Part shown: positions 2,106-25,197 of the stretch, piece after piece
How positions within the stretch are numbered: the first letter of the stretch is position 1
Layout of the letters: each line of letters starts with the position of its first letter
Assembly: GCA_025453735.1 (NCBI GenBank)
Contig: JALOPY010000001.1
Coordinates: 1-25,197 of the forward strand
Origin: a bacterium
GTDB taxonomy: Bacteria; Zhuqueibacterota; Zhuqueibacteria; Thermofontimicrobiales; Thermofontimicrobiaceae
Direction: 5' to 3'
Length of the DNA stretch: 25,197 nt
Notes under the pieces: generated by a model
The model's database searches: none
Told to the model about the DNA's origin: nothing
What the model saw: the letters and a program-made list of their open reading frames with translations, nothing else
Position numbers and translations under genes: made by a program

Positions 2106-3758
2106 ATGAAAGTTATGACAGTATTAATCATTTTCATAATTATTTTGCATGTTGGGTTTTCATCTATAATGGTTTTTTCACAAGACGAGGAACCTGCGAG
2201 CCAGGTGAATGTTCCATCGTCCACAGATACGCTTGCAGCGGGACAATCAGGTCTGGATACTGGCAAAAGAGGTTTTTCAGTAGAAACGATGCTGGAGCTG
2301 CTAAAATTGTGTGAAGGAATCGGATATTTATTGATAATGGTTTTTGTTCTTGGAGTCTTATTTATTTTCCAGAAATGGTTTGTATTGCTCCGTGAGAAGC
2401 AAGATACCGAGAAGATACCCGTTGCTAAAATGAAAACGATGAGTTATGATGACATCCAAAAAATGTTCACCCATGTAAAAGACGCGAATCCTGATTCTGA
2501 TGATGACGACCAAAGTGAAAATAAAAATATCCCACTCCTGAAACGAATATTTCGAAGAAAGAAAGCATCAGCATTTCAATTGCTGTCAAAACTCTATAAA
2601 GTTTTTGAAAGTCAAAAATCAACCAGTTCATTCGTTGAAGAGACATCAAGCTATATTCAACATTTAAAAGATGGATTTAATCCATTTTTTACTCGTCTAT
2701 CGTTTTTCTCTGACACGGCTGGAGCTTTAGGCTTACTGGGAACAGTGTGGGGAATGTTTCTGGTGTTTTACAAGGGATCGCCGGATCCAGAAGATACGCT
2801 GCGCGGTATGGGAATCGCACTGGCAACGACGATTGTTGGATTAGTAATTAGTATTATCTTAAATTCATTTACAACAGTGATCAGCAATATCTTTGATAAA
2901 CACCTGGATTTTATCAAAAACATGTCCACCGCTTTTCAAGAGCGGTTGATGAAAGAAGAGGAAAAATACCCAATCAAAGCGCAACCTATCATTGTCGAAT
3001 CATCGGCAATTGCAGCGCGACCACAACAAATTCCCGAGATGTCGAAGCGAGAGGAAAAAGCCAAACACAAACCAATTCAGGAGGCATCTAAAGAACCAGC
3101 ACAACAACAAATCCTTAAAGGCAATCCTGCTGAGATCCGGATCAAAAAAGGCGATAACCAATCGGGCGAAGTGGGAACGAAGTTATCTGATCCGATTGTT
3201 GTTGAAGTGCTGGATTCAAAAGGCAATGCTCTGGAGAATGAGACAGTGGTTTTTAGCTCGGATGAAGGTTCTGGGGTTTTCTCAAATAATAGTCGCGTTC
3301 AAAAAATTCTTACCGATGAAGAAGGAATCGCCCAGACGAATTTTACGCTTGGTCGAACAAGCGGTGAAAAGACAATCCACGTTGCCGTTGAAGATAGCAA
3401 CAATCGTGGCATAAAACTGCTGGCAATCGCGAAACCAACTCCACCGACCAAGCTGATTGAATTGAAAGGTAATTATCAAACCGGGGAATTGGGAAAACGG
3501 CTGCCGTTGCCTTTTATCGTCGCGGTGCGGGATAAGTATGACAATCCGATTCAGCGCTATGAAATAAATTTTTCATTGAAAAAAGGAACCGGACGATTTC
3601 AGGATAGCCAGAATGCGCACTACGCCACCTATACGAATGAAGATGGCTTAGTCGAGGTTTATTTTATCATTGGCAACAATCGAGGTGGGCGAGAAATCGA
3701 AGCTGAAGCAAAAAAAGTGGAGCCATCAAAAATATTGTTTGAAGCATTTGCACAGTAA
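2106..3758 (+). CDS. exbB: MotA/TolQ/ExbB proton-channel protein with two C-terminal Big-1 (invasin/intimin-type) Ig-like domains
   Basis: Likely start ATG 2106 (AAGGAG 2089-2094). Signal peptide, TM1 GIGYLLIMVFVLGVLFIF, TM2 AGALGLLGTVWGM and TM3 GIALATTIVGLVISII are ExbB/TolQ hallmarks. Two repeats follow, GDNQSGEVG..L.DPIVVEVLDSKGN...TDEEG.A and GNYQTGELG..LP.PFIVAVRDKYDNP...TNEDG.V, typical of Big-1. Confidence 0.88.
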   Translation: MKVMTVLIIFIIILHVGFSSIMVFSQDEEPASQVNVPSSTDTLAAGQSGLDTGKRGFSVETMLELLKLCEGIGYLLIMVFVLGVLFIFQKWFVLLREKQDTEKIPVAKMKTMSYDDIQKMFTHVKDANPDSDDDDQSENKNIPLLKRIFRRKKASAFQLLSKLYKVFESQKSTSSFVEETSSYIQHLKDGFNPFFTRLSFFSDTAGALGLLGTVWGMFLVFYKGSPDPEDTLRGMGIALATTIVGLVISIILNSFTTVISNIFDKHLDFIKNMSTAFQERLMKEEEKYPIKAQPIIVESSAIAARPQQIPEMSKREEKAKHKPIQEASKEPAQQQILKGNPAEIRIKKGDNQSGEVGTKLSDPIVVEVLDSKGNALENETVVFSSDEGSGVFSNNSRVQKILTDEEGIAQTNFTLGRTSGEKTIHVAVEDSNNRGIKLLAIAKPTPPTKLIELKGNYQTGELGKRLPLPFIVAVRDKYDNPIQRYEINFSLKKGTGRFQDSQNAHYATYTNEDGLVEVYFIIGNNRGGREIEAEAKKVEPSKILFEAFAQ

Positions 3759-21893: not shown

Positions 21894-23171
21894 TTAAAAT
21901 TTCACCCGTTCGAACATCTCGCGCTCTTGCCCCAGGTTTTTGATCGTTGCATCCAATCCCATTTTTGTGCCACGACTTTTTTTACCTTCCACATGAATAG
22001 CTGAGGGATCAAGGGAGCTTGACGGCTGATCAGGCATCACAAGCAAATCTTTATCCGCTTGAAACCGAGTCGCGATTGCCCATTCGACATCATGCACATT
22101 GTGAATATCGATATCATCATCCACGACGATGCAATGTTTTAATGAGCGATGCGCGTGAAATGCAGCAGCCAGTGCTTTTTCTCCATCAGCGGCAGTTTCT
22201 TTTTTGATCTGTACCACAGCGTGTAGCCAGGAGCATCCGCCAGACGTTAGCGTCACATCGCAGCATTGACAAACTTCATTGACGGCTTGGAAGATGTCCA
22301 CTTCTTTTGGCATGCCCATTAGAATTCTATGCTCCGAACGACCCGGAACCAGGGCATGATAAATCGGATTATTGCGCCAGGCAATTCTCGTGATTTCGAC
22401 CAAAGGCTGTTGCCGGACGATATCCCAGGTTCCTGTGATATCGACAAATGGACCCTCGCGGGCAAATTCTCCTGTGAAATGTCCTTCTAAAACAATCTCA
22501 CAATCGATCGGCACATGGATATCAATGGTTTTGCATGGCGCCAATGTGATGGGGGTTAATCTGGCAGCCAATTTCATCTCATCAATTTCACCGGGTGGAG
22601 AAAACGATGCCGCGAGCAAGACGGCCGGCGGCGGAGCAATGCAAATTGCCACCTCGGCTTTTCCTTGTGAATGAGCCAGCGCGTGATGCGTGCCACGATT
22701 CTCAACAACTCGAACACTTCCCCGTTTTTGATCCAGCAGCATCATCCGGTGATAGGATAGGTTCCTGCCCAATTCAGGATCATTGACGATCCAGACGGCG
22801 GAAGTGAGATAATATCCACCATCGCCAGGATAATGAAATAAGATCGGCAGCTTCGAGAGATCGATACTGGATAATTCCTGATCGCCATAAGCTTGTTGCC
22901 GGACTTCCAAAGTTTCTTCGGGCGAATCCAATTTTTGAGCCAACTGCGATAAAAAATCAGCATGCTGCAATTGCAAGTATTCTGCAAATTTTTCTCTTGA
23001 GAAAAAAATATTGCCAGCCACTTGCATATCTGAAACAGATTCAAATAGTACCGGATCAGGCTCAAGCTCGATTAGTCTTTTGCTGACCTGAAGGTAGGGG
23101 GGAAGCGGCTCTGAAACGGTTTTTAAACGACCGCTATTTTTTTCGTTTGAAATACATGCTCTGAAATCCAT
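21894..23171 (-). CDS. ubiD: UbiD-family prFMN-dependent decarboxylase, probably anhydromevalonate-phosphate decarboxylase (AMPD)
   Basis: Likely start ATG 23171 (AAGGA upstream). UbiD motifs NLSYHR, EIVLEG, EGPFVDITGTWD, PIYHAL..G.SEH..LMGMP.E, GGCSWLHAVV and VVDDDIDI; short (~425 aa); co-operonic with ubiX, mvk and HMG-CoA reductase. Confidence 0.88.
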   Translation of the reverse strand: MDFRACISNEKNSGRLKTVSEPLPPYLQVSKRLIELEPDPVLFESVSDMQVAGNIFFSREKFAEYLQLQHADFLSQLAQKLDSPEETLEVRQQAYGDQELSSIDLSKLPILFHYPGDGGYYLTSAVWIVNDPELGRNLSYHRMMLLDQKRGSVRVVENRGTHHALAHSQGKAEVAICIAPPPAVLLAASFSPPGEIDEMKLAARLTPITLAPCKTIDIHVPIDCEIVLEGHFTGEFAREGPFVDITGTWDIVRQQPLVEITRIAWRNNPIYHALVPGRSEHRILMGMPKEVDIFQAVNEVCQCCDVTLTSGGCSWLHAVVQIKKETAADGEKALAAAFHAHRSLKHCIVVDDDIDIHNVHDVEWAIATRFQADKDLLVMPDQPSSSLDPSAIHVEGKKSRGTKMGLDATIKNLGQEREMFERVKF

Positions 23172-23188
23172 GATTGGCAATCCTTGCT

Positions 23189-23755
23189 TTATTCAAAATG
23201 AAAATCAGCTCCCCATCGCTGGTAGAGATCATTAGCGATGCCGAGCAGATCGAGAATTTTGCCGACAAAAAAATCAGTCATCTCATCAATTGATTTTGGA
23301 AGATGATAGTATGCTGCCATTGACGGACAAATGATTGCGCCAGCCTGCCTGAGCTTCAGCATATTTTCGAGATTAGCTTGGGATAGAGGCGTTTCCCGGG
23401 GACTGAGAATTAGCGGACGATTCGTTCTTAGCTGGTTTTCAGCGGCTCGGATGATGAGATTTTCTGAATAGCCGCTTGCGATTGCTGCCAGTGTTTTCAT
23501 CGAGCAGGGAGCGACAACCATGCTATCGATCAAAAAGGAGCTGCTGTTTATCGGCGCCGTGCCATCGTGCTCATCAAAAAAATGAGCTTTTGGTGGAAGC
23601 TGAAAGTCTTTTCCGATTTCATGTTCAACGACCGACAAAGCATTTTTCGTTAAAATTCCGATAACATCGAAATCCCGTCTGAGCAGCTCTTCGATCAGGC
23701 GAATGCCAATAATTACGCCACTGGCGCCTGTTATGCCAACGACAAATCTTTTCAT
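23189..23755 (-). CDS. ubiX: UbiX flavin prenyltransferase
   Basis: True start ATG 23755 overlaps the mvk stop (ATGA). Motifs VVGITGASG, VAPCSMKTLAAIASG, LIIRAA, PRETPL and IDEMTDFFVGKILDLLG. Confidence 0.95.
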   Translation of the reverse strand: MKRFVVGITGASGVIIGIRLIEELLRRDFDVIGILTKNALSVVEHEIGKDFQLPPKAHFFDEHDGTAPINSSSFLIDSMVVAPCSMKTLAAIASGYSENLIIRAAENQLRTNRPLILSPRETPLSQANLENMLKLRQAGAIICPSMAAYYHLPKSIDEMTDFFVGKILDLLGIANDLYQRWGADFHFE

Positions 23756-24696
23756 TTGAGTTTTGTCGTAAAGCTTCTCACCGCGCCGGCTTTTAACAGA
23801 TCGGCTGCGATATTTTCCGCTGTCACGCCGTCTTTCGCCACGGCAACCATGCAGCCACCTTTTCCAGCGCCACAAAGCTTGGCGCCCAATGCGCCGCGCA
23901 TCGTTGCTGCATTTACCAGATTTTCTAACTCTGGGGAAGAAACACCGATTCGTTGGAGCAGATTCTGGTTTTCATCCATTAATTTTCCCAGTTTTTTGGC
24001 GTCACCATCTTTCAGAGCCAGAGCGCCGTCGCGGGCGATTTGTCCGATCTGGGTGAATATTCGATCAAACTGTTCCTGATTTGAATTCCGTGCTGCGGCG
24101 ACCTGGGCGACAACATCGCCGGTTTTTTTGCTGATGCCTGTGTCGCCAACGATGAAAAACATACTGCCGGGATGAATGGGCGACGGCTCCCGGTCTTTGC
24201 GGAACAATATCGGCTTTTCCAGGGAGATGACCGTGTTATCAATACCGCTCGGCGTTCCGTGGTGAATTTTTTCCAGCTCGAATGAATAGTTAATCAACTC
24301 CCGGGGTGCGATAACTTTCATCATCGCTTTGGTTAGGGCTCGAATAATCGCAATGCTGGTTGCCGCGCTGCTTCCCAATCCTCGCTCGATCGGAATTTTC
24401 GACCAGATCGTCAGGCGCCAGCCCGATTTCGGCAGCTTGACAATTTTATCATGAATCAATTGAATCGTTTTGATTATGTGACCAATCGATTCTGGATGTG
24501 AAGCTGCGCTAAGCGTTGTTTCGATTTTTAGATCTTTTGCTTCGATGACAGGATCAGCAACTGCGGCATCGATTGAAATAGCAGCCGATGTGCGGACATC
24601 CTGGATCGGAATTGCCACTGCTGGTTGCCCATAAACAACAGCGTGCTCACCAAACAGAATTATTTTTGCTGAAGCAGAAGCGTGTGTTGAGATCAT
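23752..24696 (-). CDS. mvk: Mevalonate kinase (GHMP family)
   Basis: SAKIILFGEHAVVYGQPAVA, PIERGLGSSAA, HGTPSGID and GAKLCGAGKGGC; adjacent to HMG-CoA reductase. Confidence 0.93.
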   Translation of the reverse strand: MISTHASASAKIILFGEHAVVYGQPAVAIPIQDVRTSAAISIDAAVADPVIEAKDLKIETTLSAASHPESIGHIIKTIQLIHDKIVKLPKSGWRLTIWSKIPIERGLGSSAATSIAIIRALTKAMMKVIAPRELINYSFELEKIHHGTPSGIDNTVISLEKPILFRKDREPSPIHPGSMFFIVGDTGISKKTGDVVAQVAAARNSNQEQFDRIFTQIGQIARDGALALKDGDAKKLGKLMDENQNLLQRIGVSSPELENLVNAATMRGALGAKLCGAGKGGCMVAVAKDGVTAENIAADLLKAGAVRSFTTKLK

Positions 24697-24737
24697 CTGA
24701 TTTTTTTTGATAAGCTTAATTTAGTAATCATTAACAT

Positions 24738-24770
24738 ACAGATTCCATCGCTCCAAGCGATGGAATCTGT
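24738..24770. repeat. Perfect 15-bp inverted repeat (REP-like hairpin) between hmgR and mvk
   Basis: ACAGATTCCATCGCT (24738-24752), CCA loop, AGCGATGGAATCTGT (24756-24770); no U-tract on the coding (-) strand. Confidence 0.8.
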
Positions 24771-24798
24771 GTAAAATTCGAAAGCTGAATGAGCATGA

Positions 24799-25197
24799 CT
24801 ATTCAGTCTTGCTAATGTTTTTTTTCTTCCCATTATTCTGTTTTTGCTGTTCCTGCTTTTCCCGAATTAAAAATTGTTTCAAGATCTGCTTTGCCCGATC
24901 ATATCGGACGCGGCCCTCATGCGCCATTTGATTGGCGACTTTAATTGCCATTTCTCCAATCGCGCCGGCAAAGACAGCAACGTTACGTGCGTGGAGCGTC
25001 ATGTGTCCTCTTTGAATCCCTTCCGTCGCTAATGTCCAGATCGCCGAAAAATTTTGGAGCAAGCCAGCCGCACCGCAGATCTCAGCCAGTTCCCTACTGG
25101 TTTTCACTTTCATTAATTTTAGCAAAATTTTCACTCCGGGATGAATCGAAGTGACGCCGCCAACGATTCCGAGCGACATCGGGATTTCCATTTCTCC
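24799..25197 (-). CDS. mvaA: Class II HMG-CoA reductase, C-terminal part (open at the window edge)
   Basis: PMSLGIVGGVTSIHP, ELAEICGAAGLLQNFSAIWTLATEGIQRGHMTLHARN (catalytic His in GHM); the frame is still open at 25197. Confidence 0.93.
   Translation of the reverse strand, partial: GEMEIPMSLGIVGGVTSIHPGVKILLKLMKVKTSRELAEICGAAGLLQNFSAIWTLATEGIQRGHMTLHARNVAVFAGAIGEMAIKVANQMAHEGRVRYDRAKQILKQFLIREKQEQQKQNNGKKKNISKTE

Follow-up and report, generated by a model that had tools for sequence, protein, structure and literature searches.

We analyzed a 25,197-bp stretch of bacterial DNA (hereafter, the window), which is the entire contig C242, the longest contig of the metagenome-assembled genome (MAG) G000. 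The MAG comes from an uncultured wetland member of the phylum KSB1, for which the name Zhuqueibacterota has been proposed (PMC11683472). Four genes at the right end of the window encode the 3′ part of HMG-CoA reductase (hmgR), mevalonate kinase (mvk), flavin prenyltransferase (ubiX), and a UbiD-family decarboxylase (ubiD). Together with partner genes on other contigs, they suggest that this bacterium makes isoprenoid precursors by an archaeal-type mevalonate pathway, in which mevalonate 5-phosphate (MVA-5-P) would be converted to isopentenyl phosphate (IP) via trans-anhydromevalonate 5-phosphate (tAHMP). We assign this reading a probability of about 80%; the enzyme activities are predicted from gene content, subfamily placement, synteny, and co-occurrence. 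A preliminary description of the window had proposed that an FCB-like bacterium uses such a pathway, and the full predicted enzyme set is encoded in the MAG and conserved in its relatives.

The four genes are co-oriented open reading frames (ORFs) on the minus strand in the order hmgR-mvk-ubiX-ubiD. The hmgR ORF (24799..25197, minus strand; 132 codons) is truncated by the contig end and lacks the N-terminal approximately 330 codons, of which no other piece was found by tblastn across the MAG. Its product, assigned to class II, gave C-terminal matches to PF00368 and TIGR00532 (model positions 326–395, 79.9 bits) and shared 88% identity with the complete 452-aa orthologue in the relative G009, a class II reductase (TIGR00532, 391 bits). 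The mvk gene (23752..24696, minus strand) encodes a 314-aa mevalonate kinase (MVK; TIGR00549, 264 bits; cut-off 163) with GHMP kinase N- and C-terminal domains in Pfam, which shared 79% identity with its G009 counterpart at the equivalent place in the operon. The ubiX gene (23189..23755, minus strand) encodes a 188-aa flavin prenyltransferase (TIGR00421, 198 bits; NF004685, 196.5 bits), the enzyme that makes prenylated FMN for UbiD enzymes. Its start was placed at the ATG at position 23755, and the family matches begin at residues 41–43 of the longest ORF. The stop codon of mvk and this start codon overlap as ATGA. The ubiD gene (21894..23171, minus strand) encodes 425 aa from an ATG, with an alternative upstream TTG start at 23180, and is separated from ubiX by a 17-nt spacer containing AAGGA. 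It is the final gene of the operon and is convergent with an rmlD-like gene. For MVK, UbiX, and UbiD, the Pfam and NCBIfam matches exceeded their cut-offs by a wide margin.

The preliminary description had reported the four co-oriented genes, the ATGA overlap, and the 17-nt gap, all of which are present in the sequence, as are the three UbiD motifs that it listed (EGPFVDITGTWD, SEH..LMGMP.E, and GGCSWLHAVV). It had also stated that neither phosphomevalonate kinase (PMK) nor diphosphomevalonate decarboxylase (DMD, also called MVD) follows mvk; within the window this holds, since ubiD is the last gene and neither gene was found downstream of mvk. The Rfam scan of the window detected no RNA family, and promoter and terminator patterns across the operon were at chance level. 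The same gene order was observed in G009, G005, G014, and G018, that is, in four of the six relatives examined and in two families, which indicates that the operon is not a chance juxtaposition.

The identity of the UbiD protein was examined by domain, structure, and phylogenetic analyses. The protein matched all three UbiD domains (PF20695, PF01977, and PF20696; N-terminal, Rift-related, and C-terminal, respectively) and TIGR00148 (354 bits). An AlphaFold model built on 30 homologues had a pLDDT of 95, and its top seven matches among Swiss-Prot structures were all archaeal anhydromevalonate phosphate decarboxylases (AMPDs) of near-equal length, with 32–39% identity and TM scores of 0.89–0.92. 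They included the AMPDs of Methanosarcina mazei (39%) and Aeropyrum pernix (32%), both with TM scores of 0.90–0.92; these two enzymes were compared via the Swiss-Prot structural search only. Genuine UbiDs in that search showed 26–29% identity and were about 60 residues longer. Among the 30 homologues, E242 and D247 of the EGPFVD motif, R145, R157, R162, N140, and H284 were invariant; we take E242 and D247 to correspond to the E-x4-E/D motif that is catalytic in Fdc1 and UbiD.

A search with the single UbiD protein against genome contigs gave no match, and an alignment-based query succeeded. The alignment-based scan covered 185,579 species genomes, and the 80 closest loci with named organisms were used. 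At least one further mevalonate gene was located within 6 kb of ubiD in 57 of these 80 loci (32 of 33 archaeal and 25 of 47 bacterial-labelled loci), and the Bathyarchaeia loci had the order mvk-ubiD-acnXL-acnXS-IPK, where IPK denotes isopentenyl phosphate kinase. A maximum-likelihood tree of 95 sequences was calculated by a quick search, with only these 80 most similar sequences as genomic homologues. In this tree, 86 ingroup sequences were set apart with an SH-aLRT of 98 from Escherichia coli UbiD and from eight distant members of the family. The nine KSB1 UbiDs formed a single clade (SH-aLRT 95), sister to sequences from Planctomycetia and Elusimicrobiota (SH-aLRT 100) and separate from a large Chloroflexota clade that contains the sequence of a Promineifilum sp. 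The KSB1 proteins were 57–70% identical to one another and at most 52% identical to anything else.

One alternative is a role of UbiD and UbiX in quinone biosynthesis or in the decarboxylation of aromatic acids, with mvk as no more than a neighbour. The NCBIfam name of the protein is indeed the generic UbiD-family decarboxylase, and its best sequence match in the PDB is the furandicarboxylate decarboxylase HmfF (6h6v, 209 bits). However, this comparison is uninformative because no AMPD structure is deposited in the PDB, and HmfF was dropped as a functional lead, the Swiss-Prot AMPDs being better matches (32–39% identity, against 26–29% for UbiD). Moreover, the scores for the menaquinone, UbiD, and VdcC equivalogs were far under their cut-offs, and the synteny with mevalonate genes spans both domains. 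We therefore consider this alternative very improbable. Structure search, homologue context, and phylogeny, as three independent lines, agree in assigning the window protein to the AMPD subfamily. The archaeal-subfamily pattern noted earlier is thus borne out: the protein groups with archaeal AMPDs and not with quinone or aromatic-acid decarboxylases, both in the tree and in the structural search.

Two side observations concern these homologues. A metagenomic homologue, P0012 (74% identity), is a 616-aa chain with UbiD and flavoprotein (UbiX) domains, which reflects either a fusion of UbiD and UbiX that exists in nature or an error in gene calling. The locus L080, labelled Candidatus Sulfotelmatobacter (Acidobacteriota), falls among the Bathyarchaeia in the UbiD tree and shares their gene order, so that it probably represents an archaeal contig that was misbinned.

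The remaining genes predicted for the pathway were found on other contigs of the MAG. The preliminary description had expected genes for a mevalonate 5-phosphate dehydratase (PMDh) and IPK outside the operon, and both AcnX subunits and IPK are clustered on C529 as adjacent, overlapping genes. The large subunit matched PF04412 (476 bits), the small, swivel subunit matched PF01989 (117 bits), and the IPK gene (NF040647, 187 bits; cut-off 120) directly follows acnXS. The best PDB match of the large subunit was the type II enzyme of Thermococcus kodakarensis (7cnr, 342 bits), as against 197 bits for type I hydroxyproline dehydratases; 7cnr is a mevalonate 5-phosphate dehydratase (PMC8184944). The order acnXL-acnXS-IPK was kept in all six relatives examined. 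A DHOD-like Fe–S flavoprotein gene after IPK on C529 was excluded as a pathway member, as it is not conserved beside IPK in the relatives. HMG-CoA synthase (HMGS), which had also been named as a gene to look for, is present on C35 and is of the archaeal type: it scored 539 bits, when read through, with TIGR00748, as against 108 bits with the bacterial-type model. It adjoins a gene with a type IX secretion system (T9SS) sorting tail, a feature characteristic of FCB bacteria. The C35 HMGS gene is followed by a TumA/TumE-like toxin-antitoxin pair. The isopentenyl diphosphate isomerase (IDI) found in the MAG is of type 1 and is encoded on C13.

Since G000 consists of 731 contigs (4.08 Mb, 85.8% completeness, 4.4% contamination), we considered whether the archaeal-looking genes could be binning or assembly contamination from wetland archaea. 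In addition to the estimated contamination, strain heterogeneity is evident: the end of C136 (L011:2-217) carries a second copy of the first 72 AcnX large-subunit codons with 92% identity, which indicates that two strains were co-assembled. That the bacterial-labelled L080 lies inside Bathyarchaeia is also compatible with such an origin. However, the operon shares its 25-kb contig with T9SS/ExbBD genes, and the contigs carrying HMGS and the decarboxylase of C13 described below have genes with T9SS tails. In the relatives, whose homologues are labelled "candidate division KSB1" and "Candidatus Zhuqueibacterota", some orthologues reside on contigs of 217–755 kb. As noted above, the KSB1 sequences form a clade of their own and are less similar to any other sequence than to one another. 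Based on the distribution in relatives, synteny, co-occurrence, and contig size, archaeal contamination is very unlikely as the source of these genes.

The AMPD-type UbiD was found in 9 of 167 species genomes of the phylum, including G000, all of which belong to one order and to two of its three families. AcnX and IPK co-occur with UbiD in this order only; the additional occurrences were in two genomes that are incomplete and in G015, where only IPK is present. The archaeal mevalonate gene set is a stable, vertically inherited trait of one KSB1 order, in an FCB phylum that is not related to Chloroflexota. One family holds genomes with only the methylerythritol phosphate (MEP) pathway, with MEP and the archaeal mevalonate set, with the archaeal set and a phosphomevalonate decarboxylase (PMD)-type gene, and with a classical mevalonate pathway. 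The stand-alone IPK of G015 (family f3; C66:54319-55056; 179 bits) occurs with IspH and without AcnX, AMPD, or PMD genes in that genome, which suggests a role in salvage.

The MEP genes looked for in the MAG were those for Dxs, IspG, IspH, and IspE. IspG and IspH gave no match in the MAG, and Dxs gave a single sub-threshold, transketolase-like match, so that no true Dxs was found; IspE is retained on C646 (L014:1027-1935; TIGR00154, 221 bits). The expectation that the MEP genes would be absent was therefore borne out for IspG, IspH, and Dxs and not for IspE. Among the nine AMPD carriers, IspH was not found in seven, and genus g6 (G005 and G012) has both IspH and the archaeal set. IspE was not present in any of the five family f2 genomes. 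The retained IspE may be left over from a recent loss of MEP, or the kinase may have a second function. The MEP pathway appears to have been lost in the G000 lineage, to judge from these gene searches, and the mevalonate route would therefore be the source of isoprenoid precursors in the cell. A PcrB/GGGPS-family gene was rejected as a marker of the archaeal pathway, since 38 of the 41 genomes of the class carry it irrespective of their pathway type; none was detected in the G000 assembly.

The preliminary description had further expected that PMK and MVD would be absent. This expectation stood for PMK and failed in part for MVD. With TIGR01220, the only matches in G000, a MAG of 85.8% completeness, and in G009, G013, G014, and G018 were to mvk with at most 38 bits, and the same model detects a PMK in G006 of the same family (133 bits). 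An MVD-family gene was found on C13 (TIGR01240, 257 bits, above the cut-off), followed by the IDI-1 gene and adjacent to a gene with a T9SS tail, and this gene is of PMD type. The best PDB match of its product was 6n0x (242 bits), as against at most 206 bits for classical DMDs; 6n0x is the phosphomevalonate decarboxylase of Anaerolinea thermophila (PMC9254496). Its closest named homologues were proteins of Bathyarchaeota and Promethearchaeota with 61–63% identity, and such genes have been read as PMD genes by Zhu et al. 2024 (PMC11052028). In that work, a PMD is recognized by having lost the lysine of DMDs while keeping the PMD histidine (PMC11052028), and it is at these same two positions that 6n0x differs from its variant 6n0z. 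The KSB1 PMD-type proteins have YWGR, not YWGK, with a three-residue insert, and TSDxGH with His for Met, whereas the DMD-type proteins of G006, G011, G039, and G024 have YWGK and Met. The KSB1 proteins also have Asp where the classical DMDs of G039 and G024 have Arg, and the catalytic Asp is conserved. From these motifs and best matches, we read the C13 gene as encoding a PMD rather than a classical DMD.

It could be argued instead that the C13 gene encodes a true DMD that works with an unrecognized PMK, so that a classical pathway runs alongside. The TIGR01240 score above the cut-off and the conservative replacement of the DMD lysine by Arg would be in accordance with this, and Hayakawa and co-workers are said to have found in 2017 that Bacteroidota use very divergent kinases. 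However, the MAG has only four GHMP-family genes, namely mvk, the C13 decarboxylase gene, an HddA-like kinase gene, and ispE. In addition, the PMK model gave no hit in four well-assembled carriers and yet finds the PMK of G006. The His for Met, the Asp in place of the Arg of the G039 and G024 enzymes, and the fact that the best solved relative is a PMD also speak against a DMD. We therefore consider the presence of a classical pathway quite unlikely. A classical cluster does exist on C26 of G006 (L046:1213-5943), comprising a DMD with YWGK and Met, a PMK-like kinase (136 bits), and a 753-aa HMGR::MVK fusion; its proteins were 33–45% identical to those of the window, which implies a separate acquisition. 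An MVD-family gene in genus g6, which lies near a second HMG-CoA reductase copy (G005 C36, L045:5018-9874), has diverged strongly, with 24% identity and about 122 bits.

The PMD-type gene was present beside the IDI-1 gene in six of the nine AMPD carriers and was also present in two further genomes with AcnX and IPK. It was not found in genus g6 or in G016, both of which have AcnX/AMPD genes. With the C13 protein as a query, it was not found either in the genomes behind L052 (Elusimicrobiota), L051 (Planctomycetia), L067 (Promineifilum), L053, and L129 (Bathyarchaeia and Promethearchaeota). Given the PMD gene on C13, G000 probably has a further way of converting MVA-5-P to IP besides the anhydromevalonate route.

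This raises the alternative that flux runs only through PMD and IPK, as in the haloarchaea-type pathway, and that AcnX, UbiD, and UbiX are redundant relics or act on another substrate. MVK, PMD, and IPK suffice as a pathway (PMC9254496), and the conservation of the PMD-type gene beside IDI-1 in six of the nine carriers fits such a role. On the other hand, ubiX-ubiD is translationally coupled to mvk behind hmgR and has remained intact in genomes of two families at 57–70% protein identity. The AcnX and IPK genes form one unit in six of six relatives, and g6 and G016 possess the AcnX/AMPD genes with no PMD-type gene found. We regard the alternative as unlikely and favor the use of the archaeal-type pathway with both branches; the retention of the two branches in both families speaks for the use of each.

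According to this proposal, HMGS and HMG-CoA reductase would form mevalonate, which MVK would phosphorylate to MVA-5-P. The [4Fe-4S] AcnX pair would dehydrate MVA-5-P to tAHMP, and UbiD with prenyl-FMN supplied by UbiX would decarboxylate tAHMP to IP. IPK would then convert IP to isopentenyl diphosphate (IPP), and IDI-1 would convert IPP to dimethylallyl diphosphate. PMD would provide a one-step, ATP-dependent bypass from MVA-5-P to IP, with MVK and IPK serving two parallel branches. The location of ubiX-ubiD directly behind hmgR-mvk would couple cofactor synthesis with pathway expression.

Oxygen is a possible, speculative reason for keeping both branches: the Fe–S cluster of PMDh is oxygen-labile. 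Cytochrome bd oxidase was found in all carriers tested and an aa3-type oxidase in some. The dependence of PMDh on an Fe–S cluster is documented (PMC10040528), and the phylum has been described as facultatively anaerobic (PMC11683472). We tentatively suggest a broader scenario, which may well prove incorrect: one KSB1 order would have replaced MEP by a largely archaeal-type mevalonate pathway and kept both known ways of converting MVA-5-P to IP, the oxygen-labile, ATP-free AcnX/AMPD branch and the ATP-dependent PMD, as condition-dependent alternatives. Its members would then be living intermediates between the archaeal and haloarchaea-type pathways, a stage that Aoki et al. have postulated (PMC9254496).

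Several observations weigh against the proposed archaeal-type pathway. A DMD-family gene is foreign to the textbook archaeal pathway, and its presence means that the AcnX/AMPD branch could formally be dispensed with; the Arg in the first PMD motif is basic like the DMD Lys, which leaves doubt on the substrate preference of the C13 enzyme. The C35 HMGS gene (L134:2934-3970) is split into two frames near 3110-3180, owing either to an assembly or strain artefact or to a genuine frameshift. IspE is kept in every member of family f1 (13 of 13 relatives), including those without IspH. The G000 MAG is fragmented, with the pathway distributed over at least four contigs, and the assignment of these contigs to one cell rests on the relatives. 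Finally, the only sequencing run labelled as RNA, which was flagged as probably DNA, contained only fragments of relatives with 90–95% identity and yielded no evidence of expression in G000.

The 102-nt spacer between hmgR and mvk contains a perfect 33-nt palindrome (24738..24770) with a 15-bp stem and a 3-nt loop, and the fold of the spacer with this element had an energy of −26.3 kcal/mol (z = −3.6). The MAG contains 86 copies with up to four mismatches dispersed over contigs, and the palindrome is thus assigned to a repetitive extragenic palindrome (REP)-like repeat family of the G000 genome. In the source wetland metagenome, its depth was about 80-fold higher than that of the genes on either side, and it was seen there next to many different sequences. 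Related copies were present in G013 and perhaps G019 and were absent from the matching spacer of G009. The palindrome was not found on C529, C13, or C35, and it therefore provides no link between these contigs and the window. It may act as a partial terminator or an mRNA stabilizer between hmgR and mvk.

Both A. pernix and M. mazei have the tAHMP pathway (Hayakawa et al. 2018, as cited in PMC13001223; PMC10040528). Like these archaea, the KSB1 bacterium has MVK, a two-subunit type II AcnX, a UbiD-family AMPD with UbiX, and IPK. Unlike them, the host is an FCB-group bacterium with a class II reductase and IDI type 1, and its genes are arranged in two units, hmgR-mvk-ubiX-ubiD and acnXL-acnXS-IPK. 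It also has a DMD-family gene of PMD type, and the canonical archaeal pathway involves no DMD-family decarboxylase (PMC9254496).

The archaeal mevalonate pathway has been described as nearly restricted to Archaea, a single bacterial case, from Chloroflexota, having experimental support. Reviews still give its bacterial occurrence as "some members of Chloroflexota" (PMC13001223). The case is that of Candidatus Promineifilum breve (Kanno et al. 2024, as cited in PMC13001223 and PMC12547664), and the Chloroflexota precedent mentioned in the preliminary description is thus real. Like the KSB1 organism, this is a bacterium with PMDh and AMPD, and the UbiD of a Promineifilum sp. MAG (L067) falls in the same ingroup, with 48% identity. 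However, the KSB1 UbiDs lie outside the Chloroflexota clade, and the AcnX encoded beside the Promineifilum-clade ubiD was only 33–34% identical to the KSB1 AcnX. The sister relationship of the KSB1 clade to Planctomycetia and Elusimicrobiota, outside the Chloroflexota clade, points to an acquisition separate from that of Chloroflexota.

The nearest relatives outside KSB1 for every gene were those of an Elusimicrobiota MAG (L052), with the single string hmgR-mvk-ubiX-ubiD-acnXL-acnXS-IPK, and of a Planctomycetia genome (L051) with nearly the same string. The identities were 52% for UbiD, 59% for UbiX, 47% for MVK, 54% for the AcnX large subunit, 48% for IPK, and 68% for the C-terminus of HMG-CoA reductase. 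The gene order is the same, except that the KSB1 set is split in two and the PMD-IDI1 pair is added. These relatives suggest that a bacterial cassette has been passed from phylum to phylum, with a history separate from that of the Chloroflexota lineage. In the literature searched, we found no paper tying KSB1/Zhuqueibacterota, Elusimicrobiota, or Planctomycetota to the archaeal mevalonate pathway, and the paper proposing Zhuqueibacterota does not mention isoprenoid synthesis (PMC11683472). With its stepwise MEP loss and co-existing PMDh/AMPD and PMD routes, the clade would be a natural test bed for isoprenoid pathway replacement, and it would be useful for asking whether oxygen and energy supply decide between an ATP-saving and an oxygen-tolerant branch. 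The KSB1 enzymes would also represent mesophilic bacterial versions of the ATP-saving pathway, which is already being engineered into E. coli (PMC12547664).

The haloarchaea-type pathway with MVK, PMD, and IPK is known from Haloferax volcanii and from Chloroflexota such as Roseiflexus and Anaerolinea (PMC9254496). The KSB1 set resembles it in that the decarboxylase has the PMD histidine and 6n0x as its best match, IPK is present, and PMK was not found in the genomes searched. It differs in that PMD occurs together with the very dehydratase/decarboxylase pair that it is considered to have supplanted, and, unlike in Chloroflexota, the KSB1 PMD is closest to proteins of Bathyarchaeota and Promethearchaeota. 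Chimeric mevalonate sets are also known from Asgard archaea, in which Hodarchaeales have PMK and DMD with AMPD and AcnX (Zhu et al. 2024, PMC11052028). As in these sets, more than one variant of the lower pathway occurs in one KSB1 genome, but here a bacterium pairs PMD with AMPD and AcnX. The pathway is therefore of a known kind, and its distinctive features are the split into two units, the PMD-IDI1 pair, the archaeal-type HMGS, and a family of mixed pathways.

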